Shown piece by piece: positions 1 to 11,544 of a DNA stretch of 11,544 nt. The translations under genes and the position numbers were made by a program. Position 1 is the first letter of the stretch, and each line of letters starts with the position of its first letter. The notes beneath the pieces are model-generated. The model was not told the origin of the DNA. It worked only from the letters and a program-made list of their open reading frames with translations, and searched no databases. This DNA is from a virus (lineage: Duplodnaviria; Heunggongvirae; Uroviricota; Caudoviricetes), in the IMG/VR virus record IMGVR_UViG_2778261419_000002; one strand, written 5' to 3'.

Positions 1-63
1 GTTCTGAATGGTACGGATACTCGCACCGAAAATGTCAGCCAGCTGCTTTTTGTTGACTTCCAT
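1..63 (-). CDS. nohA: Terminase small subunit Nu1-like, N-terminal 21 codons only (gene continues beyond window start)
   Basis: Minus strand translates from ATG at 63..61 as MEVNKKQLADIFGASIRTIQN, matching the N-terminus of lambda Nu1 as I recall it; upstream context GTGGAATGAACA-ATG also resembles lambda. Symbol could equally be nohD/nohQ. Confidence 0.85.
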   Translation of the reverse strand, partial: MEVNKKQLADIFGASIRTIQN

Positions 64-240
64 TGTTCATTCCACGGCCAAAAACAGAGAAAGGAAACGA
101 CAAAGGCCCAAAAGCTCGTTTTCAGCACCTGTCGTTTCCTTTCTTTTCAGGGGGTATTTTAAATAAAAACATTAAGTTACAACGAAGAAGAACGGAAATG
201 CCTTAAACCGGAAAATTTTTATAAATAGCGAAAACCCGCG

Positions 241-252
241 AGGTCGCCGCCC
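241..252. other. cosN cohesive-end sequence of a lambda-type cos site (cosB expected between here and the Nu1 start, about 64..240; cosQ side about 253..275)
   Basis: Plus strand aggtcgccgccc is the reverse complement of GGGCGGCGACCT, the lambda 12-nt cohesive end; flanking minus-strand sequence CGACAGGTTACG|GGGCGGCGACCTCGCGGGTTTTCGCTATTTAT closely resembles the lambda right-end/left-end junction from memory. Confidence 0.7.
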
Positions 253-451
253 CGTAACCTGTCGGATCGCCGGAAAGGACCCGCAAAATGATAATAATTA
301 TCATCTGCATGTCACAACGTGCATCTACGCAATCAAACCACGTCAAATAATCAATTATGACGCAGATATCGTATTAATTGATCTGCATCAACTTAACGTA
401 AAAACAACTTCAGACAATACAAATCAGCGACACTGAATACGGGACAACCTC

Positions 452-685
452 ATGTCAACGAAGAACAGAACCCGCAGAACAACAACCCGCAACATCCGCT
501 TTCCTAACCAAATGATTGAACAAATTAACATCGCTCTTGAGCAAAAAGGGTCCGGGAATTTCTCAGCCTGGGTCATTGAAGCCTGCCGCCGGAGACTGTG
601 CTCAGAAAAAAGAGTTTCTTCTGAAGCAAACAAAGAAAAGAGTGACATTACTGAATTGCTCAGAAAACAGGTCAGACCAGATTGA
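452..685 (+). CDS. ynfO: Small basic protein, probable ribbon-helix-helix DNA-binding fold (YnfO-like, 77 aa)
   Basis: ORF with ATG at 452; Arg/Thr-rich N-terminus followed by IRFPNQMIEQINIALEQKGSGNFSAWVIEACRRRL, which resembles an RHH (CopG/Arc-like) beta-strand plus two helices; weak SD. Size and position match K-12 Qin ynfO as I remember it. Confidence 0.55.
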   Translation: MSTKNRTRRTTTRNIRFPNQMIEQINIALEQKGSGNFSAWVIEACRRRLCSEKRVSSEANKEKSDITELLRKQVRPD

Positions 686-742
686 AGCAATTTAGATAAT
701 CGTGCAGACTACGCCCCCTCATATCACATGGAAGGTTTATCT

Positions 743-1153
743 ATGGATCAGGTAGTCATTTTTAAACAAATATTTGATAAAGTTCGAAACGATTTAAACT
801 ATCAATGGTTTTATTCTGAGCTAAAACGTCACAATGTCTCACATTACATTTACTATTTAGCCACAGAGAATGTTCATATTGTATTAAAAAATGATAATAC
901 AGTGTTATTAAAGGGCCTAAAAAACATTGTGTCTGTCAAATTTTCAAAGGATAGGCATCTTATAGAAACGACCTCTAATAAGCTGAAATCCAGAGAGATC
1001 ACATTTCAGGAATACAGAAGAAACCTTGCTAAAGCAGGAGTTTTTCGGTGGGTTACAAATATCCACGAACAAAAAAGATATTACTATACCTTTGATAATT
1101 CATTACTATTTACTGAAAGCATCCAGAAAACTACACAGATCTTACCACGCTAA
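743..1153 (+). CDS. ydfO: DUF1398-family prophage protein (YdfO/YbcV-like)
   Basis: ORF in track starts at 728, but the ATG at 743 is preceded by GGAAGG at 7-nt spacing, giving a 136-aa product; sequence matches my recollection of the YdfO/YbcV family. Confidence 0.65.
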
Positions 1154-1304
1154 ACCATAACGTCCGGCTTCTCTCACTCCTGAGCCGGACTGCATTGGTT
1201 TAATAAAAACCATCAACAATTGTGATTTAGATATTCGGAACCATTCAAATATAACAAAACCCCGTAAAAACGAGGTTTATGGATAAATTTTATTATTGAA
1301 TACA

Positions 1305-1481
1305 TCAGATTAAATTAATCTTGACATCATAGCTTTCAAGACCCGTCATTTTTTCCCGTGCGGTAAACTGAATACTGGTAACTTCTTTCCCGGTCTTTTT
1401 CTTAAGTTCAATAATTTTTTTTGTTATATATTCAGAAATATCTGCTTCTGCTTTTGTTTTTAAGTTTTCAATATTCATCAT
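1305..1481 (-). CDS. gnsB: GnsA/GnsB-family small protein, 58 aa (absent from the ORF track, which appears to have a size cutoff)
   Basis: Hand translation of minus strand from tandem ATGATG at 1481: MMNIENLKTKAEADISEYITKKIIELKKKTGKEVTSIQFTAREKMTGLESYDVKINLI, stop TGA at 1307..1305; strong SD AAAGAGGAAA immediately upstream; resembles GnsB from memory. Confidence 0.7.
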   Translation of the reverse strand: MMNIENLKTKAEADISEYITKKIIELKKKTGKEVTSIQFTAREKMTGLESYDVKINLI

Positions 1482-1649
1482 TTCCTCTTTTAGTCTGTTA
1501 TGACTTTCCAGTTACACAGTAAGTCGATTATATGGTGCAAACGTGTAAAAGATAAGATGAAACATCGCAATAATCAACATACGATAGTCTAAATTTTACA
1601 CAAACAGACAAAGAGAATTTTCCTGAATTATCAATGCAATAGCATCAAA

Positions 1650-1805
1650 TCAACTCAAGAGCCTTATTGCTGCTTCCAGAATTTCTTCTGAAGTAACATG
1701 TCGATCCGCGGCTACATAAATGACTTTATGATCTCCGGTCAGAGATGGAAACCCTGCGGCCATTACAGTAAGGTGTGTTTTTTCGCCATTTGGATATTCA
1801 CGCAT
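1650..1805 (-). CDS. ynfN: YnfN-like small prophage protein (51 aa from internal ATG; track ORF extends to 1841)
   Basis: ORF MREYPNGEKTHLTVMAAGFPSLTGDHKVIYVAADRHVTSEEILEAAIRLLS; I recall K-12 YnfN as 51 aa starting MREYPNGEK; GGAG lies upstream of this ATG. The longer 63-aa start at 1841 cannot be excluded. Confidence 0.5.
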   Translation of the reverse strand: MREYPNGEKTHLTVMAAGFPSLTGDHKVIYVAADRHVTSEEILEAAIRLLS

Positions 1806-1923
1806 GATGGTGTTAACTCCAGTCATCGCTGGCACTACCACTGCTGGTTCAGAGTTAAAAAAACTATGATTTTTTTCATGATGTTACCGTAGTATGTGAG
1901 TATCCATCGAATAGACACCAAGC

Positions 1924-1961
1924 AAAAAAGCTCCCGAAGGAGCCTTCATTTTCACTTTTTT
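1924..1961. terminator. Candidate bidirectional rho-independent terminator between cspI and ynfN
   Basis: Hairpin GCTCC-CGAA-GGAGC (1930..1943) flanked by an A-run upstream (1924..1929) and a T-rich tract downstream (cttcattttcactttttt), so a U-tract follows the stem on either strand. Confidence 0.45.
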
Positions 1962-2150
1962 AAATCCAACGACAGACGGCTGGCATTTAAGTATTGTGAA
2001 ATATTATCAAATGTAATCATCATTGATTTACAAAAGATACATTTTGCCCCGAAAGGATTCATGTCAGAAACATCAAAAGATGATGTTCTATACTGGGAAC
2101 CATGACAACACGGGCATCTAAAGTGAATATGGTTTGTAATATTGTCTACC

Positions 2151-2363
2151 TCAAAGCGCCACTACATGAACAGCGGCAGGACCTTTAGGTCCGTTCTCAA
2201 TACCAAATTCAACTTCCTGATTCTCAGTTAATGTTTTGAAATCGTTGCTCTGAATTGCTGAGAAATGGACAAACACATCTTTGCTGCCATCTTTCGGCGT
2301 GATGAAACCAAAACCTTTTTCAGGGTTAAACCATTTCACTAAACCAGTCATTTTGTTAGACAT
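2151..2363 (-). CDS. cspI: Cold-shock protein CspI (CspA family, 70 aa)
   Basis: Translation [70 protein letters not shown] contains the RNP1-like motif KGFGFI and the RNP2-like VFVHF of cold-shock domains. Confidence 0.9.
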
Positions 2364-2600
2364 AATTATTACCTTTTGAAGAAATTAGCCCTTGGGCAGA
2401 ATGGTCCGAAAAAAATATCAGAGAGAAAAACCAACAAGGAAATCTCAAGAGGTACAAATAATAAAATTATAACAATGACTGCTTCAGATAAATTTGTAAC
2501 AAACCAGAACACCATTAACGCATGATTAACCACCCATAGCAAGGATTACTTTTGTAAAGAAAAACACAGCAATGAAAGAATAGCTTTATTTATTAATAAA
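2364..2600 (-). promoter_or_regulatory. Probable cspI promoter and long AT-rich 5' UTR
   Basis: About 240 bp of AT-rich non-coding sequence upstream of cspI on the minus strand; CspA-family genes typically have long structured 5' leaders. Exact promoter elements not resolved. Confidence 0.35.
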
Positions 2601-2724
2601 ACGTGTCATTCTGATTAAGACCTTTTATCTTACCCTTAAGATTTCAGGAATTTTGGCTCATGGAAGAGTCCTTTTTATTTAAATTTTACATTCCGCGATG
2701 TAAATGTTCCGATTTAATATTACC

Positions 2725-3752
<1,028 letters not shown>

Positions 3753-3807
3753 GGATATTTATCAGGATGCTACCAATGAAAGATACTGGAAAGCCAACTG
3801 CAAAAAG

Positions 3808-4122: not shown

Positions 4123-4126
4123 TGAA

Positions 4127-4342
4127 TTACTCTCCCCGTGCAGCCTTACGCTTGTCTTCTTTAATCTTGAAATAAAGGTTTGTCAGATACGTCAGCATGC
4201 CAAATACCAGACTACCCAATACACCTATTGCCGCCCACTGTGAGGGCGTGACTTTATCGAGCAACTGTAAAAACCAGTAGCCAGCACTGCCTGCAGAGGT
4301 GCTGTAGGCGATGCCCGTTGTTAACTTATCCATGGATTTCAT
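4127..4342 (-). CDS. essQ: Class II holin of the phage 21 S type (pinholin), dual-start motif MKSM
   Basis: 71-aa product [71 protein letters not shown] with two TM segments and a charged C-terminus; strong SD GGAGGTGA before ATG at 4342; a second Met at codon 4 gives the classic antiholin/holin dual start. Track ORF extends further upstream without support. Confidence 0.85.
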
Positions 4343-4430
4343 AGCCTCACCTCCGCAGATAACGGATGGTGTACACGGTTTGGTTCGAAGAAGGAAAGAA
4401 GTTACATTAGCGTAAGGCCCGAACATCTAT

Positions 4431-4463
4431 TCAAAAAGAAAAACGCCAGCAATTATTCTGGCG
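4431..4463 (-). terminator. Rho-independent terminator downstream of the AraC-family gene, immediately upstream of the holin
   Basis: Minus strand reads CGCCAG-AATAATTG-CTGGCG followed by TTTTTCTTTTTG. Confidence 0.55.
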
Positions 4464-4532
4464 TAGCTAAAAATATCGTATAATCTTACACTTCAAAAAA
4501 TAACTTTATAAAATGCCATCACATCATATCTT

Positions 4533-5246
4533 CTAAGAAAATCTTGATAAATATTGGTGCGGAGGCACACCAAAATATCCTCTAAAAACACTTACAAAAT
4601 ATGATGCATTGTCATACCCGCATATTCCCGCCACCTTGCCGACAGTATGGTTACTGTAGATCAATAATCTTTGCGCCATCATCATTCGTTCTTCAAGAAT
4701 TAATTTACTAAACGATAATCCTTCGTCTTTTAATTTTCTTTTTAACAAACTCTCGCTCATATATAATCTTGAAGATATATCACAAAGTCTCCATGACGCT
4801 GAGATATCCGAGTGAATAATAGCCTTAACTTTACAACCTAAGCTATTAAGACTTCCGAACAAAAAACTTTGCACTATTTTCTCTGAAGATAAGACAGCAA
4901 GACATGCAAGTGATATTTGATTTCTAACTACATCCACGGTTTTGCTATCACAATTCAAGCATGCAACCAAGTTCTTTAACAATGAAAAATCTTCACATTC
5001 TACTATCAAGTATGACGGATAAAACCTTCTTACAGAAAAAGGTGAGAGTGTGTAGTTTTTAAAGAAATCATTAACTGTTTTCTCCTCAACATCTACGATC
5101 ATTAGATGATCTGTATTTGACGAAAAAAGATCTTTTAAATTGTATTCAATGAGAACAGTATTTCCTTTTTTAAACAAAATATCTTCTTTACCAATTCGGA
5201 CACCAAACGAGTTCAACACCAAAATGATAGAACATATGTATGGCAT
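4533..5246 (-). CDS. AraC/XylS-family transcriptional regulator (AppY/EnvY/GadX-like), AT-rich
   Basis: C-terminal region LLKRKLKDEGLSFSKLILEERMMMAQRLLIYSNHTVGKVAGICGYDNASYFVSVFRGYFGVPP has the two-HTH AraC signature; ATG at 5246 preceded by AGGTGGA, whereas the track start at 5255 is GTG; base composition is visibly more AT-rich than the flanking phage genes. Confidence 0.8.
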   Translation of the reverse strand: MPYICSIILVLNSFGVRIGKEDILFKKGNTVLIEYNLKDLFSSNTDHLMIVDVEEKTVNDFFKNYTLSPFSVRRFYPSYLIVECEDFSLLKNLVACLNCDSKTVDVVRNQISLACLAVLSSEKIVQSFLFGSLNSLGCKVKAIIHSDISASWRLCDISSRLYMSESLLKRKLKDEGLSFSKLILEERMMMAQRLLIYSNHTVGKVAGICGYDNASYFVSVFRGYFGVPPHQYLSRFS

Positions 5247-5652
5247 ATTATCCACCTGATATCATTGGGGTTACACCAGGTAAGTATAGGTGGAAAATCA
5301 ATATTCGCCAGTTCAACAATAAGGAAAATCTCATTGCATCACAACTATAAAACCATGTGTTTAACTCACAAAAAACAAATCATTAAACTAATCTGTTATA
5401 TTATAATATCTGCGTGCAATAATAATATTATATGCTCTTAATATTCACTTGAAATATCTTCATATAAAAACAGATTGAATAAAATCTTTTGGGGCTGGTA
5501 TGTTTACCAACATTAAATTGCATCTCAATGTTTTCTTTAGCGTGAACAGGATTTTTATAAAAACTGACACTATGAGCATCATAGCGTAGTTTTTACGATT
5601 GTAAATATCCTGCATACAGGAACTCATCACTTTCAGATGATATCGCATACAG

Positions 5653-6612
5653 TTAATTCACCATCAGTCTTAGAGCCAGTTCTTCCGGATAGGGATCGAA
5701 GTAATTCTGTGTAAGCAAGTAATCATTAGGATACTCACCCAGATAATGCTTCAGCAGAGTCAACGGCGCAAGAAGAGGCAATGTGCCAAAGCGATAGTTA
5801 AGTATAACCTCGCTCAACTCTTTACGCTGGCGTGTACTTAAGTAATTACTAAAATACCCCTGTATATGCATCAGCACATTCGTGTGATTTTTACGTGATG
5901 CTGGTTTTCTGAGAATCGCCATCAGATTATCACGATACACCTCAAAGTATGATTCAAGGTCCGCCCACTCGTGTATTGCAGCCACAAATGGTCCCATATC
6001 TTTATAGCCTGCCTGGCTATGCGCCAACAACTGAAGCTTATAACGACTATGAAAAGCTAATAACTCTCTTCTTGATAATTTCTCCTTGTAAAGGTGATTG
6101 AGCTCATGCAAAGCAAAAACTCTTTCAATAAAATTCTCACGAAGCACTGGATCATGTAATCGCCCATCCTCTTCAACCGGTAGCCAGGAAAACTTTTCCA
6201 TCAAAGTGCTCGTAAATAGTCCCACTCCATCTTTACGACCTCGATTACCATTTTCATCATAGACACGCACGCGCTCCATGCCACAGCTGGGAGATTTAGC
6301 ACAAACCACAAACCCCGATACATCCTTTAATTTGTCCATATAAGAACGACTAAACTCTGTCATTCTCTCTGTCACATCCTCATTCTGGTCGTGGCTGAAA
6401 CACATCCGTATATTTCCTTGCTTCGAGCGCACAAGTCGTAGAGCAGGACGCGGAACTGGCAGCCCTATAGCCATTTCCGGACATACTGGTCTGAATGTTA
6501 CCCATTCCACTAATTTGTCCATTAAAAAGTCATCTCTTTTGTGACCACCATCAAAACGAACAGCAGAACCGCCCAAACAACCGCTGATCCCAATCACAGG
6601 TTTTTTTATCAT
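5653..6612 (-). CDS. DUF523/DUF1722 fusion protein (TudS-like 2-thiouracil desulfidase family N-domain plus YbgA-like C-domain)
   Basis: 319-aa ORF; N-terminus KPVIGISGCLGGSAVRFDGG ... VCPEMAIGLPVPRP matches the conserved Cys-containing DUF523 motifs as I recall them; strong SD GGGGGAGG before ATG at 6612. Confidence 0.75.
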   Translation of the reverse strand: MIKKPVIGISGCLGGSAVRFDGGHKRDDFLMDKLVEWVTFRPVCPEMAIGLPVPRPALRLVRSKQGNIRMCFSHDQNEDVTERMTEFSRSYMDKLKDVSGFVVCAKSPSCGMERVRVYDENGNRGRKDGVGLFTSTLMEKFSWLPVEEDGRLHDPVLRENFIERVFALHELNHLYKEKLSRRELLAFHSRYKLQLLAHSQAGYKDMGPFVAAIHEWADLESYFEVYRDNLMAILRKPASRKNHTNVLMHIQGYFSNYLSTRQRKELSEVILNYRFGTLPLLAPLTLLKHYLGEYPNDYLLTQNYFDPYPEELALRLMVN

Positions 6613-6804
6613 TTCCTCCCCCTTGACTAATTCATTAACACATAAACTTTGTAGTGCACGGACTAAATTGCCTTTCTGGCTTCATCACTGACAATTTTTC
6701 TGTTATTGACTATTCCTAATATAGTAGGAAAGTTCTTTAAGTGATCGGTCGTACTCATCTATCTTTCATACTTACTCTCAACTATCAAAAGTACAGGATT
6801 TATT

Positions 6805-7329
6805 ATGAAGTTATGGCCTGTGTTGACTGGCATTGCACTCTCTTTCACTCTTATAGCATGTAAGGCCCCGACACCACCTAAAGGTGTGCAGCCGATTACA
6901 AATTTTGACGCCAACCGCTACCTCGGAAAATGGTATGAAATAGCTCGCCTCGAGAACTGGTTCGAACGTGGTCTGGAACAGGTCAGCGCTACTTATGAAA
7001 AACGGAACGACGGAGGGATTCGCGTACTTAACCGTGGATACGATCCAACGAAAAACAAATGGAGCGAGAGCGAAGGTAAAGCATACTTTACTGGAGATAC
7101 TAAAACTGCAGCGTTGAAAGTTTCGTTTTTTGGCCCCTTCTATGGTGGCTATAATGTAATCAAACTGGATGATGAGTATAAGTATGCTCTTGTCAGTGGT
7201 CCGAACAGAGAATACCTATGGATTCTGGCAAGGACCCAAACTATTCCAGATAATGTAAAAGCAGACTATGTGCGTACCGCTCAAAAGTTGGGATTCAATG
7301 TCAATGAACTATTATGGGTTAAACAATAA
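6805..7329 (+). CDS. Bacterial lipocalin Blc-like outer-membrane lipoprotein
   Basis: 174-aa ORF; signal peptide with lipobox LIAC then K at +2; motifs NFDANRYLGKWYEIARLENWFERG and KVSFFGPFYGGYNVI...YLWILART closely parallel E. coli Blc; SD AGGA 6 nt before ATG. Confidence 0.85.
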   Translation: MKLWPVLTGIALSFTLIACKAPTPPKGVQPITNFDANRYLGKWYEIARLENWFERGLEQVSATYEKRNDGGIRVLNRGYDPTKNKWSESEGKAYFTGDTKTAALKVSFFGPFYGGYNVIKLDDEYKYALVSGPNREYLWILARTQTIPDNVKADYVRTAQKLGFNVNELLWVKQ

Positions 7330-7354
7330 AATCCCCACCCGAAATGATACTTAT

Positions 7355-7384
7355 TAGAAAAAAACCAGCCTTTGGGGAGGCTGG
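7355..7384 (-). terminator. tR'-type rho-independent terminator downstream of Q (also lies just 3' of the convergent blc-like gene)
   Basis: Minus strand reads CCAGCCT-CCCCAA-AGGCTGG followed by TTTTTTTCT; located about 100 nt after the Q stop codon. Confidence 0.6.
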
Positions 7385-7484
7385 CTAAATCAGGAAACAA
7401 GCTGTTATATGATAATAACTACGTTGCGATTCCAACATTTAAAATGTTAGACTAATGAAAATCAGACAGCAACTTTTCCTTTAA
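7385..7484 (-). promoter_or_regulatory. Candidate Q-dependent late promoter (pR'-like) and Q-utilisation region
   Basis: Position between the Q stop and the terminator matches lambdoid pR' architecture; minus strand has TTGCTG-17nt-TAACAT, a possible -35/-10 pair. Assignment is positional, hexamers are weak. Confidence 0.3.
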
Positions 7485-7862
7485 TTATTTCGAACAATCA
7501 GCATCCATCTCCAATCGGAGATCCAACACCATCAGCATGCCCTCCACTACGCCCTCAGCTTTCTGGAGCATCCTGCCAACCCAACAATCAGATCGCCCAT
7601 GCTTACGTGCAAGCGCCATAAAAGTCATGCCGCCGACATAATAGTCCACCAATAAATCATGTAAATCGCTGTTGTTTTTTTTCAGGCGAGCCATACATTC
7701 ACAAATGATCATCGCGTCATCGTCACAGCATTGCGGACGAGATCTTACTTTTGAAGGAATTAATCCCTTAAAACCGGCGGCAATGGACGACCAGGTCACA
7801 TCTTCATGATTATTAGCCGCCCATGCCCCCCAACGCTCAAGAACCATCTGAATATCACGCAT
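7485..7862 (-). CDS. Late-gene antiterminator Q, phage 82 / QuuD-like family
   Basis: Translation from ATG at 7862: [76 protein letters not shown]... matches my recollection of DLP12 QuuD; track start at 7877 is a TTG extension; GGAG upstream of the ATG. Confidence 0.8.
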
Positions 7863-7879
7863 CAACTTACTCCACAAAA

Positions 7880-8929
7880 TTAGGCCAGCACACCAATTGC
7901 CAGCGCGCGATCGATAAATCGAAAAATCAGCTCCAGTTGGGAGCCATACTTCTCTTCAAATGCCACGGTATCCGTATGCAACTCGTCGTGATGCTTTCTG
8001 CACAAAGGCAACACAAAGAGATCATGTGCTTTGGTTCCCATTCCGCCCTGCCCGTGACCAATCAGATGATGCGGATCGTCGGCTGGCATACCGCAGCAAG
8101 CACACGGCTGTGTCTTAACCCAGCGTGTGTATTTCTCCTTAACCCAACGGTGACGTTTAGGCAGCTTCATGAAAGATTCCGGAGACTCTGGATCAACGGT
8201 GATGCTTACCACCGTCTTTTCTTGTGATGGGTTTTGTTGCTGGTGGGCGTGAGGCAACGGTGCAAGATTTTTTGTGCGCTGTTTCAGTATGCTGGTGGCG
8301 GTCTGCTCTCCCGGTACGATGTCGCTTTCACGGTACATTGAGCGGATTTTTTCCGCACGCAACCCCAGCGAACGACGTAATACCGCTTCCGGTAGCGCGT
8401 CCGCCACCTGATTGCGGACCGCCCACCAGGATAATTCAGCCAGAGATAATTCACGCTCCTGCGTACCGCTTATTGCGTGACCGATGACGTCAATCATCCA
8501 TGCTGACAGGTTTTGATGAGCTAGTTGCTCGAGTGATTCGGATGTCTGGTCACGCAGCTGGTTGTCGCAGTGCCAGCACAACACCATTGCGCCGGTACCA
8601 TAACGGTGAATGACGGTTTCGCTGTGATGATAATCGCCGTGTGGCCACTGGCAGGATTTAATATGGCGCAACAGCCAGTCAGACAATGCACCAGCACCAC
8701 CAGCAGCACGAATCACCCGTGCGTTACTGAAAAACGGCAGCAATGTTTTGTCTTCCACCAGCGGCTGGCGAGCGGCAGGAACGACCCCGGACGGCAGATT
8801 ACGCATGCTTTTCGGTTCCGGCTCCACCAGTAACCGGGTATTGTGGAATACCGGCATGGGTTCACGGCCCGGCTTAACGATCACCAGCCCGAGTTCCGGT
8901 ACCAGAACAGGTCGAAGTAATACCCGCAC
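7880..8929 (-). CDS. ydfU: DUF968-family prophage protein with C-terminal Cys/His (HNH-like) motif (YdfU-like)
   Basis: 349-aa ORF; start is GTG at 8929 with a strong SD (TGGAGGTAAC) 5 nt upstream; C-terminus contains CACCG...[10 protein letters not shown]...CRKHHDELH. Confidence 0.75.
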
Positions 8930-8930
8930 G

Positions 8931-9209
8931 TTACCTCCAGATGCGTTGCTGGAATGTGCGGGACGGACGCGGTGGGCGTTCGGAGTAAGGAAGCCTGACG
9001 GAGATTATCCAGTGACGGTAGTCGAGGCTAAGGGCTTTTTGAACCTCGCATCCGCGCCTGCGGTAACACTGAATGAGCCATTCGGCCTGTTCTTCAGTGC
9101 ATGGGGGATGCTGGTACCAGTCTGACTTAAATGCGTGAGAATACCGCTCGTGCGTGTGGGCAAGAACGGTCGAATTATCATGATTGTAATATTTTGCGTT
9201 GCGTGCCAT
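8931..9209 (-). CDS. Hypothetical 92-aa prophage protein, translationally coupled to the DUF968 gene
   Basis: ORF with ATG at 9209 and SD-like GGAG upstream; stop TAA at 8933..8931 lies 1 nt before the GTG start of the next gene; His/Cys-containing segment HTHERYSH...PPCTEE...QCYRRRGC. No family recognised. Confidence 0.45.
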   Translation of the reverse strand: MARNAKYYNHDNSTVLAHTHERYSHAFKSDWYQHPPCTEEQAEWLIQCYRRRGCEVQKALSLDYRHWIISVRLPYSERPPRPSRTFQQRIWR

Positions 9210-9275
9210 CGGTTTTCTCCGGTGGCACGGTGTTACTCAGCGGGAGTTCAGCCCCGCGCAAGATTGTAGATGAGT

Positions 9276-9527
9276 TTATTCTTCTGAAAAAGCAGAAAAG
9301 CCAGCTTTTATTCCGATCTCTTTCAATGCCTGTAATGAAGTGACAAACTCACCGTCGCGCAAGATAAATCCGTCCGTCACTCGGGCATCCACATAATTAA
9401 TTAACGCAGCCCCATTTTTTTGCAAACACACAATGCGGTAATGACTAGCAATATTTCCATTTTCAACGCACACAGCATAGAGGCCATCTTCACAAAAAAT
9501 TTTACGCAGTTCTTCGATGTTCATCAT
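9276..9527 (-). CDS. rem: Small prophage protein, Rem-like (83 aa)
   Basis: 83-aa ORF starting with tandem ATGATG preceded by GGAAGGA; size and position (between hokD and the DUF968 gene) match K-12 Qin rem as I remember it; sequence identity not verifiable here. Confidence 0.5.
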   Translation of the reverse strand: MMNIEELRKIFCEDGLYAVCVENGNIASHYRIVCLQKNGAALINYVDARVTDGFILRDGEFVTSLQALKEIGIKAGFSAFSEE

Positions 9528-9643
9528 CAGAATCCTTCCGGATAATTAGCTCTCCCCTTTAAGGGACCATCCCTCTTATCCCTGCGCGCTACTTAAGTAT
9601 TTTTGATTCTATTCCGGCACCATCCAGAACTTCAAATGCGTTG

Positions 9644-9675
9644 AAAATAAAAACAAAAACCCGCCGAAGCGGGTT
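9644..9675 (-). terminator. Rho-independent terminator of the relB-relE-hokD operon
   Basis: Minus strand reads AACCCGC-TTCG-GCGGGTT followed by TTTTGTTTTTATTTT. Confidence 0.6.
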
Positions 9676-9743
9676 AAGTGCGGGTGCGTTGAGGATGCCT
9701 GCCACATCAGAGGTGGCGAGGGATTTCTCACTCGCCGAGTCTC

Positions 9744-9899
9744 TTACTCCTCAGGTTCGTAAGCTGTGAAGACAGCGACCTCCGTCTGGCCGGTTCGGAT
9801 TCGTACCTCGCAGAGGTCTTTCCTCGTTACCAGTGCCGTCACTATGACGGTTAAACAGATGACGATCAGGGCGATTAACATCGCCTTTTGCTGCTTCAT
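9744..9899 (-). CDS. hokD: Hok-family type I toxin HokD (RelF), 51 aa (absent from the ORF track)
   Basis: Hand translation of minus strand: MKQQKAMLIALIVICLTVIVTALVTRKDLCEVRIRTGQTEVAVFTAYEPEE, a typical Hok single-TM peptide; SD AGGAG upstream of ATG at 9899. Confidence 0.85.
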   Translation of the reverse strand: MKQQKAMLIALIVICLTVIVTALVTRKDLCEVRIRTGQTEVAVFTAYEPEE

Positions 9900-9970
9900 A
9901 GCCTGCTTCTCCTGTCAACGCAAAGCAGAAGTGTCACCTTCGGTGCGAAACAGAGATGTCATGCTTTGGT

Positions 9971-10258
9971 TCAGAGAATGCGTTTGACCGCCTCGCTATA
10001 TACTTCCGAGCGTTCTCTTTTCCCAACAGAAATCACGAAAACGACAACTTTCTCGTCTATAACCTGGTATACAAGGCGATAGCCTGAAGACCGGAGCTTA
10101 ATCTTGTAACAATCAGGCATACCACGGAGCTTGTTTGCTTCAATCCGGGGTGACTCAAGTACTTCAACCAGCTTCTTTTTCAACTGTTCACGTACCGTCG
10201 AGCCCAGCTTTCGCCATTCCTTTAGTGCCCGCTCGTCAAAATCCAGAAAATACGCCAT
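9971..10258 (-). CDS. relE: Type II toxin RelE (ribosome-dependent mRNA endonuclease)
   Basis: 95-aa ORF MAYFLDFDERALKEWRKLGSTVREQLKKKLVEVLESPRIEANKLRGMPDCYKIKLRSSGYRLVYQVIDEKVVVFVISVGKRERSEVYSEAVKRIL; ATG overlaps the relB stop (ATGA). Confidence 0.9.
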   Translation of the reverse strand: MAYFLDFDERALKEWRKLGSTVREQLKKKLVEVLESPRIEANKLRGMPDCYKIKLRSSGYRLVYQVIDEKVVVFVISVGKRERSEVYSEAVKRIL

Positions 10259-10497
10259 CAGAGTTCATCCAGCGTCACACGTACTGGCTTAGGATTACGA
10301 AGCCGTTCTTTCACTATCTCCACAAGTTCAGCATCTTCATCACTCAGGAGTGTCTGTTTGAACGGCAAGCGTTCATTGTCAGCGATATACTCGAGCATGA
10401 GACGAAGCGCTTCAGAAGGAGTTACACCCATTTTTTCAAGCGCGGCGTAAGAACGCGCTTTAAGTTCATCGTCAATACGCAGGTTAATGCTACCCAT
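10258..10497 (-). CDS. relB: Type II antitoxin RelB (RHH repressor)
   Basis: 79-aa ORF MGSINLRIDDELKARSYAALEKMGVTPSEALRLMLEYIADNERLPFKQTLLSDEDAELVEIVKERLRNPKPVRVTLDEL; SD GAGGTG upstream; immediately 5' of relE. Confidence 0.9.
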   Translation of the reverse strand: MGSINLRIDDELKARSYAALEKMGVTPSEALRLMLEYIADNERLPFKQTLLSDEDAELVEIVKERLRNPKPVRVTLDEL

Positions 10498-10508
10498 GTC
10501 TTACACCT

Positions 10509-10534
10509 CTTGTAATTACAAATGTCATTACAAG
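10509..10534 (-). promoter_or_regulatory. relBE operator (relO) inverted repeats overlapping the operon promoter
   Basis: Perfect palindrome TTGTAATTACAA (10510..10521) followed by a related half-palindrome TGTCATTACAAG, directly upstream of the relB start; consistent with RelB/RelE autoregulation sites. Confidence 0.55.
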
Positions 10535-10827
10535 TATCGCACTACAACATGCTTAGGGCAAGTCACGAAGGAAGTCAGAAAGTAGTCGTAAGAACGGTGA
10601 TCACTGTCCGCTTTCTGCCAGGAGCAGCCATTGCTAAGTCCATCCTGTATTGTGCAGGTCAGCTCGTTTTTAAAGAGTCCGGCCATCATCTTACTGGTAC
10701 AGACACCATATACTTTGTGACGGTCAGGCTACATATGCACAACTCAACTTATTCATCTATTTTTTGCTTTAGCATGTCAGTGTTGCTTTCTCGTCGGCGG
10801 GTGAGCGGTGACCTGACCTGTCGATAA
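10522..10827 (+). CDS. ydfV: Doubtful 101-aa ORF (YdfV-like annotation); coding status uncertain
   Basis: Length and position (between relB and flxA, + strand) match the K-12 ydfV annotation as I recall it, but there is no convincing SD, it overlaps the relB promoter/operator, and the translation has no recognisable features. Confidence 0.25.
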   Translation: MSLQVSHYNMLRASHEGSQKVVVRTVITVRFLPGAAIAKSILYCAGQLVFKESGHHLTGTDTIYFVTVRLHMHNSTYSSIFCFSMSVLLSRRRVSGDLTCR

Positions 10828-10979
10828 AGGAACGTAACACGTTTTATGCAACACCCGCATGCGGCAGAAAATTATTGCCGAACGTTTACCCCTGTCAACA
10901 AGCTTTACTTTCTGAGGCGCGCCAGCCCGCGAGGAAAACAATCTGAACATCAAACAATTAATGACACAAGAAATACGAT

Positions 10980-11006
10980 TAAAGATTTTTTTGTTCATGC
11001 CGATAG
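10980..11006 (+). promoter_or_regulatory. Sigma-28 (FliA) class 3 flagellar promoter of flxA
   Basis: TAAAGATT (10980..10987), 11-nt spacer, GCCGATAG (10999..11006), matching the sigma-28 consensus TAAAGTTT-N11-GCCGATAA; SD AAGGAG follows. Confidence 0.6.
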
Positions 11007-11029
11007 TGCTTTTTTAAAAGGAGAAATCT

Positions 11030-11362
11030 ATGTCTGTCACAATTCAGGGAAATACCTCAACCGTTATTTCAAACAACTCCGCCCCGGAAGGAACATCAGA
11101 AATAGCCAAAATCACAAGACAAATTCAGGTGCTGACTGAAAAGCTTGGGAAAATCTCATCGGAAGAGGGGATGACGACACAGCAGAAAAAAGAAATGGCT
11201 GCATTGGTACAGAAGCAAATTGAAAGCCTCTGGGCTCAACTGGAGCAGTTGTTAAGGCAGCAGGCAGAGAAAAAGAATGAAGACGCGACAGTTCAGCCTG
11301 ATAAAAAAGAAGAGAAAAAAGACGATACAAATACCGCTGGCACCATTGATATTTACGTCTAA
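11030..11362 (+). CDS. flxA: FlxA, FliA-regulated protein (110 aa)
   Basis: ORF MSVTIQGNTSTVISNNSAPEGTSEIAKITRQIQVLTEKLGKISSEEGMTTQQKKEMAALVQKQIESLWAQLEQLLRQQAEKKNEDATVQPDKKEEKKDDTNTAGTIDIYV with SD AGGAG and an upstream sigma-28 promoter. Confidence 0.85.
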   Translation: MSVTIQGNTSTVISNNSAPEGTSEIAKITRQIQVLTEKLGKISSEEGMTTQQKKEMAALVQKQIESLWAQLEQLLRQQAEKKNEDATVQPDKKEEKKDDTNTAGTIDIYV

Positions 11363-11376
11363 GTGACAGCCGTATT

Positions 11377-11400
11377 GTGGCCCTCATCGGGCCACTTTTC
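11377..11400 (+). terminator. Rho-independent terminator of flxA
   Basis: GTGGCCC-TCATC-GGGCCAC followed by TTTTCG, 15 nt after the flxA stop. Confidence 0.55.
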
Positions 11401-11544
11401 GCCATCAGCCTTTTCTTTAAAGACATATTATCTTTGTATCATTTCTGATAGTTAACATTACAAGATATGAATCGCCACGGGTTTAACAGACACCTCAGAG
11501 TCATTTAAGATGGCTTAAAGAGAGGTGCCCATGAGCGGTAAGCG

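Follow-up and report, generated by a model that had tools for sequence, protein, structure and literature searches.

A probable composite moron cassette of blc, rudS and an araC-family gene between Q and the holin of a Qin-type Escherichia coli prophage

In Stx phages, stxAB occupies the Q-S slot, between the gene of the late antiterminator Q and that of the holin. The lipocalin gene blc was scored as a moron in >50% of gut lambda phages (PMC6969025), and RudS_vir of phage 1H12, a tRNA 4-thiouridine (s4U) desulfidase, lowered tRNA s4U when it was expressed in E. coli; its tRNA desulfidation was weaker than that of other RudS enzymes (PMC11417400). According to the same study, overexpression of RudS_KT from Pseudomonas putida diminishes the UVA growth delay, RudS_ST (ORF319) of Salmonella is controlled by a MerR regulator, and rudS is elsewhere linked to light- and UV-response genes (PMC11417400). 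This primary RudS paper and a 2026 review describe E. coli as being without RudS, and both take this absence as the reason that s4U levels in this species do not fall under near-UV.

Here, we analysed a window of 11,544 nucleotides (the whole stretch of the viral record IMGVR_UViG_2778261419_000002), which belongs to a Qin-type lambdoid prophage of E. coli with the gene set ydfU-rem-hokD-relBE. Its cargo at 4431-7484 consists of three genes, flanked by a Q21-family antiterminator and a P21-type holin. An earlier note on this DNA had described the three as unrelated to lysis or morphogenesis, in keeping with their Pfam/NCBIfam matches, and coordinates and dN/dS confirmed three real genes at the stated place. 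Its naming of a Blc-like lipocalin (+ strand), a DUF523/DUF1722 fusion and an AT-rich AraC-family regulator was likewise correct (PF08212; PF04463 and PF08349; PF12833, 33% GC). We consider it likely that the locus is a composite moron cassette, made of two separately acquired units, which sits in the Q-to-holin slot and moves by recombination.

The antiterminator gene (7485-7862, minus strand, 125 aa; PF06530, 8e-51) encodes a distant member of the Q21 family, with a phmmer match to the Q21 structures 6p18/6jnx (E 5e-9); it shares 82% amino acid identity with DLP12 QuuD and 13% with YdfT of K-12 Qin. At the other side, the left edge of the shared Q-cargo-S block is formed by the P21-type class II holin (4127-4342, minus strand, 71 aa, dual start MKSM; PF04971, 1e-33), which is 96% identical to DLP12 EssD. 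Its start is most likely at 4342, according to the PGAP annotation of a near-identical strain, and a start at 4426 was set aside on the same basis. Compared with K-12 Qin, an exchanged block spans 4372-7879 and contains the Q gene itself. The same slot holds nmpC in DLP12 and, next to a different Q, ynfU-cspB-cspF-ynfS in K-12 Qin, where the earlier note had also placed cspB/cspF. A 62-aa ORF between rudS and araC (5460-5648, minus strand) was taken as spurious because it overlaps a terminator hairpin and has no PGAP annotation. The sole Rfam match in the window was the cspA thermoregulator upstream of cspI, and the search returned no match inside the cassette.

The product of rudS (5653-6612, minus strand, 319 aa) is a fusion of TudS (DUF523; PF04463, residues 7-149, 5.8e-40) and DUF1722 (PF08349, residues 192-309, 9.4e-40), and is 91.8% identical to gp66 of phage 1H12, which is RudS_vir. 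An alignment to TudS (6z92) showed that Cys12/44/110, Glu46, Arg55 and Ser107/109 are all present at the same offsets. In RudS_vir and RudS_ST, Cys12/44/110 are the ligands of the [4Fe-4S] cluster, and E51, R60, S111 and S113 are the catalytic residues of RudS_KT (PMC11417400). Judged by these residues and domains, the fusion protein is RudS, a predicted [4Fe-4S] tRNA 4-thiouridine desulfidase. rudS was found in 1183 of the 5426 complete E. coli genomes, with nearly all copies in prophage Q-S slots. Hence, ~20% of strains contradict the published view of E. coli as a species without RudS, and the choice of strain could therefore alter the outcome of experiments on s4U, UVA or tRNA modification.

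The divergent neighbour, blc (6805-7329, plus strand, 174 aa; PF08212, 7e-43), encodes a predicted outer-membrane lipocalin lipoprotein with a signal peptide and the lipobox LIAC (Cys19). The protein passed the cutoff of the NCBIfam Blc subfamily NF007786 (312.6 bits, cutoff 267), and it shares 59% identity with Blc of K-12 and 78-79% with the rudS-linked Blc proteins from Citrobacter and Enterobacter. The prophage-type allele WP_000780581 has been detected in a proteome and assigned to the outer membrane, and in a proteomics paper the protein was 2-3x up under meropenem. Current proteomics and annotation labels, "Blc" for Blc and "YbgA family protein" for RudS, hide the identities of these proteins.

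The third gene, araC (4533-5246, minus strand, 237 aa, 33% GC; phrog_1450), occurs only in Escherichia prophages. Its product belongs to the GadX/YdeO/Rns class of the AraC/XylS family and carries a C-terminal double helix-turn-helix DNA-binding domain (PF12833, 3e-16; PF00165, 6e-11), with a profile match of 1.6e-33 to the GadX DNA-binding domain 3mkl, to which it is 41% identical. The best NCBIfam matches all fell far short of their equivalog cutoffs (YdeO, 112 of 348 bits; HilD, 92.5 of 354; GadX, 90 of 500), so the regulator is no orthologue of YdeO, GadX or HilD. Identity was 48% to the O157 AraC protein at the OI-8 position (0.33 Mb), which by its position alone is probably PatE, followed by GadW (33%), AppY (30%) and YdeO (29%). 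The top full-length PDB matches of an AF2 model (pLDDT 84) were CsvR, Rns and ToxT, at a TM of only ~0.44 and an rmsd of ~15 A. The nearly invariant K20/R74 were considered as equivalents of H20/R75, which bind fatty acid in Rns; a shift of ~29 residues in the profile (HMM) alignment to Rns led us to reject this idea.

All three cassette genes are located between Q/pR'/tR' and the holin. Read from the sequence, the best candidate for the late promoter pR' is at 7444-7472 on the minus strand (TTGCTG, 17 nt spacer, TAACAT) and has a weak -35; a second candidate on that strand, at 7484-7513, matches the consensus. Among cassette alleles, this candidate region is conserved; that of DLP12 is unlike it. 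About 100 nt downstream of Q, immediately beyond the end of the convergent blc reading frame, lies a tR'-like intrinsic terminator (7354-7386, minus strand; hairpin 7363-7386) with a 9-bp GC-rich stem and U7 (dG -14.9 kcal/mol, z -3.6), the stem of which is identical in four cassette alleles. blc, on the plus strand, is antisense to late transcription, and rudS and araC, on the minus strand, are co-oriented with it, rudS being the first sense-oriented gene after pR'/tR'. The earlier view of the cargo as placed under late transcription can therefore hold for rudS and araC only, by their orientation, and fails for blc.

The 192-bp divergent region between blc and rudS (6613-6804) presumably houses the promoters of both genes. 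Behind rudS, a terminator-like hairpin flanked by A and U tracts (5560-5595, minus strand; dG -17.6 kcal/mol, z -6.2) is conserved among cassette alleles. The region upstream of araC (5247-5559, ~31% GC) would contain the araC promoter, and a 17-mer within it, TTTCCACCTATACTTAC (5280-5296), does not vary among alleles and contains a -10-like hexamer, TATACT. As the earlier note had read, araC has an intrinsic terminator of its own (4433-4464, minus strand; hairpin 4443-4464 and U-tract, dG -11.3 kcal/mol), ~100 nt upstream of the holin start. Each minus-strand unit, rudS as well as araC, ends in such a terminator-like hairpin, and both of these hairpins, like that of tR', are conserved. A search of the cassette promoters for LexA/SOS boxes gave chance-level matches only, none of them in the intergenic regions. 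With a presumed promoter for each of blc, rudS and araC, expression would be possible in the lysogen, in which pR' transcripts would halt at tR'. After induction, Q-modified RNA polymerase would pass tR' and proceed antisense over blc, then in the sense direction through rudS and araC, past the terminator of each, and on to the lysis genes.

The moron character of the genes is seen in their presence or absence among related phages and in a GC content of 33-44%, compared with 47-50% in the flanks. The module as a whole has 37.9% GC and is AT-richer than the backbone, as had been claimed, and composition is uneven among its genes (araC 33%, rudS 43%, blc 44%). Elsewhere in the window, 600-2800 is equally AT-rich. 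Comparison between cassette alleles gave dN/dS values of 0.06-0.26 for blc, rudS and araC, which indicates purifying selection on all three, and the dS of araC exceeded that of rudS and blc. Some strains have IS3 or IS1 inserted in blc, rudS or araC, which shows that these genes are dispensable.

A search for carriers and replacements, which the earlier note had proposed, matched the cassette in 1154 of the 5426 complete E. coli genomes (~20%), with K-12 Qin and DLP12 holding other cargo; the trio was covered to at least 80% in 883 genomes. The order Q-blc-rudS-araC-holin occurred on three backbones, Qin-type, DLP12-like and lambda-like, and the cassette is also carried by viable, plaque-forming gut coliphages, 1H12 among them. 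Neither of the arrangements that would have spoken against the module was seen: the trio is absent from K-12 Qin and never occurred outside a prophage context. We propose that the cassette passes between lambdoid phages together with its own Q gene and the P21-type holin.

The idea of separately acquired units was borne out from both sides. In non-phage context, a divergent blc adjoins rudS in 42 of 62 non-E. coli loci, C. sedlakii also having the direct divergent layout with a spacer of 188 bp, and the blc-rudS cluster has been mobilised by IS26 on E. coli plasmids. Chromosomal and plasmid loci have a MerR/MlrA-like regulator in between, which the phage version is without; intergenic sequence is not conserved between phage and chromosomal versions, which left no basis for deriving a shared operator. 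Among GTDB species representatives there was no near-identical blc-rudS donor (best 76% for RudS and 80% for Blc at the amino acid level), and the proposed capture of this first unit, whole, from an enterobacterial chromosome is therefore drawn from the shared layout only. The second unit would be the AT-rich regulator of the GadX/YdeO/PatE class, relatives of which (59% and 50% identical) are the only cargo between Q and holin in phages where Q is of another type and the holin of the same family. In strain 2824, IS1 stands in place of araC and blc-rudS is intact. These results support a composite cassette, with blc-rudS and araC acquired separately. The Q-S slot thus appears to be filled in steps: some phages have an AraC moron there, and others have gained blc-rudS in addition.

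The earlier note had left it undecided whether the three genes work together, and the constant order of the trio on three phage backbones, with 883 genomes at the stated coverage, means that functional coupling instead of three independent morons could be involved. In such a single stress module, the AraC protein would be a dedicated regulator of blc and rudS that replaces the MerR-type regulator of the chromosome, in line with the loss of the MerR/MlrA-like gene from the phage version. However, AraC relatives fill the same slot without blc-rudS, araC differs in GC and has the higher dS, strain 2824 keeps blc-rudS after its araC was replaced, the closest characterised relatives (PatE, PsrB, AppY and GadX) control host regulons, and the two intergenic regions showed no operator-like motif in common. 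We regard this one-system reading as unlikely, and the case for a regulator with its effectors as weak. Under the composite reading, the AraC protein most likely rewires host stress genes (acid or stationary-phase), by analogy with PatE, PsrB and AppY, and RudS would turn tRNA s4U8 back into uridine and so reduce the near-UV cross-linking of tRNA that causes the growth delay.

Compatible with the composite cassette is a mainly phage-serving role of rudS, which we hold to be possible without being probable. [quoted passage not shown] Being the first sense gene after pR'/tR', rudS would be expressed along with the late genes; its position and orientation, its retention in plaque-forming phages, the effect of RudS_KT on UVA growth delay (PMC11417400) and the ties of rudS to light/UV-response genes elsewhere all fit such a role. 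The terminator of its own and the divergent promoter region from the chromosomal layout do not, nor do the lack of a LexA box and the persistence of intact rudS under purifying selection in defective Qin-type prophages. A role of the cassette in anti-phage defence or superinfection exclusion is most improbable: PADLOC models matched none of the three proteins, all of which fall in clear non-defence families, and other genera have blc-rudS as a chromosomal locus of housekeeping type, even though prophage accessory slots frequently house defence genes and an outer-membrane lipoprotein could in principle disturb adsorption.

The cassette offers a simple natural system for asking if a phage ties a tRNA-modification eraser to induction. 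As a rather doubtful extension, RudS of temperate coliphages might be an induction-coupled tRNA eraser, the SOS response to UV or sunlight also triggering s4U8 removal, and blc-rudS an unrecognised enterobacterial unit of light and envelope stress that phages and IS26 plasmids spread into E. coli; a search of the literature on lipocalins in LitR/light regulons gave no usable support. The cassette is already common and partly known, since blc (PMC6969025) and RudS_vir (PMC11417400) were both studied from phages carrying it. Its parts have each been noted before in related phages, and as a kind it belongs to the known Q-S morons. New here are the composite origin, the antisense position of blc, the terminator of each minus-strand unit and the presence of RudS in ~20% of E. 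coli strains.

The closest counterpart is gp64-gp68 of phage 1H12, with the same order and orientation of Q, blc (opposite strand), rudS, araC and holin, and the sister infant-gut lambda-like phages Lambda_2E9, ev087 and IdasGreatGrand have the same layout. Identity between the 1H12 proteins and those of the window is 95% for Q, 96% for Blc, 92% for RudS and 92% for the holin, but 75% for AraC, the 1H12-group alleles of which are notably divergent. 1H12 and its sisters belong to the viable lambda-type phages and have ninB/ren/P early regions, whereas the window is from a Qin-type prophage. The slot itself is polymorphic, stxAB of Stx phages, nmpC of DLP12 and ynfU-cspB-cspF-ynfS of K-12 Qin taking the same position between Q/pR'/tR' and the holin. 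Like blc here, nmpC and cspF are Q-adjacent genes antisense to the late transcript, a repeated pattern; the cargo differs, a tRNA-modification eraser and a transcription factor here compared with toxin, porin or cold-shock proteins in the other slots. The divergent blc and rudS also resemble the chromosomal blc|(merR-uraH-)rudS loci of Enterobacter, Leclercia and Citrobacter, and further counterparts are the IS26-bounded E. coli plasmid copy and orf242-orf319 of Salmonella SPI-2. Chromosomal and plasmid counterparts are 66-76% (RudS) and 68-80% (Blc, mostly 75-80%) identical to the window proteins. Unlike the chromosomal loci, the phage version is without the MerR/MlrA-like regulator and the transthyretin-like gene, and lies within a phage late operon with araC downstream. 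The window AraC resembles PatE, PsrA/PsrB of EHEC, AppY of DLP12 and the host proteins GadX, GadW and YdeO in being AT-rich and ~240-250 aa long, with an N-terminal beta domain and two HTH motifs, but it is an orthologue of none of them, given the wide shortfall from the NCBIfam equivalog cutoffs, and it sits in the Q-S slot and not near the tail-fibre or att end.

The window is an E. coli lambdoid prophage of the Qin type. It was 99% identical to strain 13P484A across 11.5 kb, and K-12 Qin was collinear with it on both sides, at 98.5% identity over 1-3762 and 96% over 7880-11468. The minus-strand order is relB, relE, hokD, rem, ydfU, Q, the cassette region, holin, ydfR, rrrQ, rzpQ and cspI. 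The Q gene (7485-7862, minus strand) encodes a distant relative of Q21, and a P21-type holin is encoded at 4127-4342 on the minus strand. The 71-aa holin form starting at 4342, with an MKSM dual start, fitted the P21-holin domain and the PGAP annotation, which disfavours the 99-aa mechanical ORF from ATG 4426 (extra 4343-4426). Dual starts of the MKSM kind are typical for S21-type holins. The sole Rfam match of the window was a full-length cspA-type thermoregulator 5'UTR before cspI (2124-2508, minus strand, 114 bits). Between ydfU and rem lies a 92-aa ORF (8931-9209, minus strand) that matched phrog_1212 (6e-36); related strains list it as a hypothetical gene, and the homologous site of K-12 is without gene annotation. 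At the left end, intergenic and close to nohA, ynfO and ydfO, positions 1-614 and 665-1172 shared 96% and 85% identity with the DLP12 nohD-ylcI-ybcV region, an example of mosaicism linking these two types of cryptic prophage in K-12.

Between Q and the holin gene, three ORFs within 4431-7484 gave strong Pfam and NCBIfam matches: an AraC-family regulator (4533-5246, minus strand), a TudS(DUF523)-DUF1722 fusion, rudS (5653-6612, minus strand), and a Blc lipocalin (6805-7329, plus strand). These matches, together with dN/dS values of 0.06-0.26 among the cassette alleles compared, indicate that all three are real genes. Each product fell into an existing PHROG family without assigned function. The AT-richness noted earlier was found for the module as a whole (37.9% GC vs 47-50% in the flanks) but was unevenly distributed, with 33% in araC, 43% in rudS and 44% in blc.

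RudS homologues of 66-76% identity were found, with one genome scanned per species, in Citrobacter, Enterobacter, Klebsiella, Kluyvera, Leclercia, Pectobacterium and others, and in 42 of the 62 such rudS loci a Blc homologue (68-80% identical) was located just upstream on the opposite strand. In C. sedlakii, blc and rudS diverge directly from a 188-bp spacer, compared with 192 bp in the window, and the locus is plainly chromosomal (yjbB, a BCCT transporter gene, rluF and lysC as context). The Enterobacter arrangement differs in having a MerR/MlrA-like regulator and a transthyretin-like gene between blc and rudS. Copies of IS26 flank the same Enterobacter-type cluster on E. coli plasmids, which are thus a second, non-phage route of the blc-rudS cluster into E. 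coli. The AraC gene, Q and holin were absent from all these non-phage blc-rudS loci, in the chromosomal scan and in the IS26 plasmid cluster. The rudS search returned 60 places on plasmids; one of these clusters (L079, E. coli plasmid NZ_CP187565.1, 59-61 kb) is an IS26-bounded fragment with a lipocalin gene opposite MerR, uraH (transthyretin-like) and a divergent rudS of about 66% nucleotide identity. A third rudS lineage, with 67% nucleotide identity, was present on the chromosome of E. coli strain I2 (L080, 791-793 kb), where rudS is co-oriented and overlaps with a DUF3833 gene in an IS-rich island beside xylose-utilisation genes.

Distant AraC alleles (59% and 50% identical) were found alone behind other Q families (PF03589 and PF06323). 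In the single such locus reaching far enough (L082), a P21-type holin gene lies directly downstream of the lone AraC gene. This locus, from a related prophage on a Logan ERR273785 contig (821-3166), also encodes a Hok toxin, a Fic protein and a KilA-N/BstA_C protein immediately upstream of the nin region; downstream of the lysis genes it has a TrkH-like gene and genes for ParB_N and TAGT (PF20691) proteins. Because the pair is chromosomal elsewhere, AraC relatives stand alone in other phages, and GC content and dS differ, these results support the separate acquisition of blc-rudS and araC, which the earlier note had suspected.

Matches to the 3-kb region were obtained in 1154 of 5426 complete E. 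coli genomes (883 with at least 80% coverage), in two main identity classes of at least 99% and 90-95%, and rudS alone in 1183 (1111 with at least 80% coverage). The order Q, blc (opposite strand), rudS, araC, holin was seen on Qin-type (L001, L077), DLP12-like (L002) and lambda-like (L003) backbones as well as in viable phages including 1H12, Lambda_2E9, ev087 and IdasGreatGrand. Strain 13P484A carries a Qin-type copy with 99.9% identity. The block common to different backbones corresponds to 4126-7904 and contains holin, cargo and Q. Insertion sequences damage a minority of copies. In the E. coli B lineage, BL21(DE3) (H193) and C41(DE3) (L004), IS3 truncates rudS at about 6466; the B-lineage copy retains intact blc and Q and has lost araC and the lysis genes by deletion. 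IS3 lies within blc in strain ET745 (L083), and IS1 replaces araC in strain 2824 (L077). Two short contigs of a MAG named 'Candidatus Nanosynbacter sp.' (L060 and L065; JARKOR010000151 and JARKOR010000135) carry the cassette as Q, Blc, RudS, AraC and holin at 85-98% amino acid identity; misbinning of E. coli phage DNA is the almost certain explanation.

By its sequence, the fusion protein is RudS. TudS-DUF1722 proteins strip 4-thiouridine (s4U) from tRNA (Jamontas et al. 2024, PMC11417400); in that study, overexpressing RudS enzymes in E. coli lowered tRNA s4U, and RudS_KT, the enzyme used for that test, reduced the UVA-induced growth delay. RudS_vir, gp66 of phage 1H12, was among the enzymes tested and was active on tRNA, yet weaker than other RudS enzymes (PMC11417400). 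It resides in the same cassette and shares 91.8% identity with the window protein, which retains the cluster ligands Cys12/44/110 and, as E46, R55, S107 and S109, all equivalents of the catalytic E51, R60, S111 and S113. The lipocalin scored above the curated Blc subfamily cutoff (NCBIfam) and carries a lipoprotein signal whose lipobox reads LIAC. Judged by identity (59% to core E. coli Blc, 78-79% to rudS-linked Blc of other genera), it is a second Blc type. The cassette allele WP_000780581 (ST648-type) has been detected as protein, increasing 2-3-fold with meropenem (PMC13459554), and blc has been counted among the morons of over half of a set of 19 infant-gut lambda phages (PMC6969025).

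Protein searches with the AraC regulator matched only E. coli-annotated or unnamed sequences, and all contexts examined were Escherichia prophages or coliphages. Its top NCBIfam matches, YdeO, HilD and GadX, were each far below cutoff. It was 48% identical to the AraC protein at the OI-8 position of O157:H7, which by position is probably PatE, and 33%, 30% and 29% identical to GadW, AppY and YdeO. The best full-length matches of an AlphaFold model (pLDDT 84) were CsvR, Rns and ToxT, at a TM of about 0.44 and an rmsd of about 15 A, and the DNA-binding domain matched that of GadX. That prophages encode AraC regulators of types such as PatE, Psr and AppY is well established.

Late transcription runs from right to left. 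A candidate pR' lies at 7444-7472 or 7484-7513 (minus strand), in a region kept among cassette alleles, unlike DLP12, and a tR'-like hairpin at 7363-7386 (minus strand) follows about 100 nt downstream of Q. Conserved terminator-like hairpins on the minus strand follow rudS (5567-5590; dG -17.6, z -6.2) and araC (4443-4464); the latter, with its U-tract, is the terminator named in the earlier note. The start codon of araC is preceded, at a distance of about 37 nt, by an invariant 17-mer that contains TATACT. The proposal that the cargo is under late transcription fits the sense orientation of rudS and araC, but not blc, which converges with Q and so lies antisense to late transcription.

Linkage across genera and independent mobilisation by phages and IS26 suggest that blc and rudS form one unit. 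That the AraC protein regulates this pair is doubtful, since araC has a separate history, has been lost without loss of blc-rudS, and has relatives that regulate host regulons. RudS may possibly serve the phage after UV-triggered induction, as rudS is the first sense gene in the late operon, but a LexA box is absent; this reading is non-exclusive with the others. Most likely, the cassette operates in two modes. In the lysogen, tR' would stop late transcription, and blc, rudS and araC would be expressed as three autonomous units, the sole direct evidence being the Blc protein. Upon induction, judging from how lambdoid Q proteins act, Q-modified polymerase would pass all three terminators into the lysis genes, and read-through would yield mRNA of rudS and araC along with antisense RNA to blc.

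Q-S slot morons are a textbook kind of feature, and earlier publications cover both the lambda moron blc and the enzyme activity of RudS_vir. In the literature searched, no description was found of this cassette as a single unit of composite origin, of blc lying antisense while rudS and araC lie in sense orientation, or of how common the cassette is in E. coli. Its prevalence contradicts the published claim that homologues of TudS or RudS are missing from E. coli (PMC11417400), restated by a 2026 review.

Other cargo occupies this site in K-12 Qin and DLP12, so it is a classic polymorphic Q-S cargo slot, as had been proposed. In K-12 Qin, the block matching 4372-7879 consists of ynfU-cspB-cspF-ynfS, which includes the expected cspB/cspF, and an unrelated Q (YdfT, 250 aa, 13% identical to the window Q); in the Qin lineage, the cargo came in together with its own Q gene. 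DLP12 has homologues of the window Q (82%) and holin (96%), with homology ending at 4362 and 7503, and its cargo is nmpC. The antisense placement of blc resembles that of nmpC in DLP12 and of cspF/ynfS in K-12 Qin.
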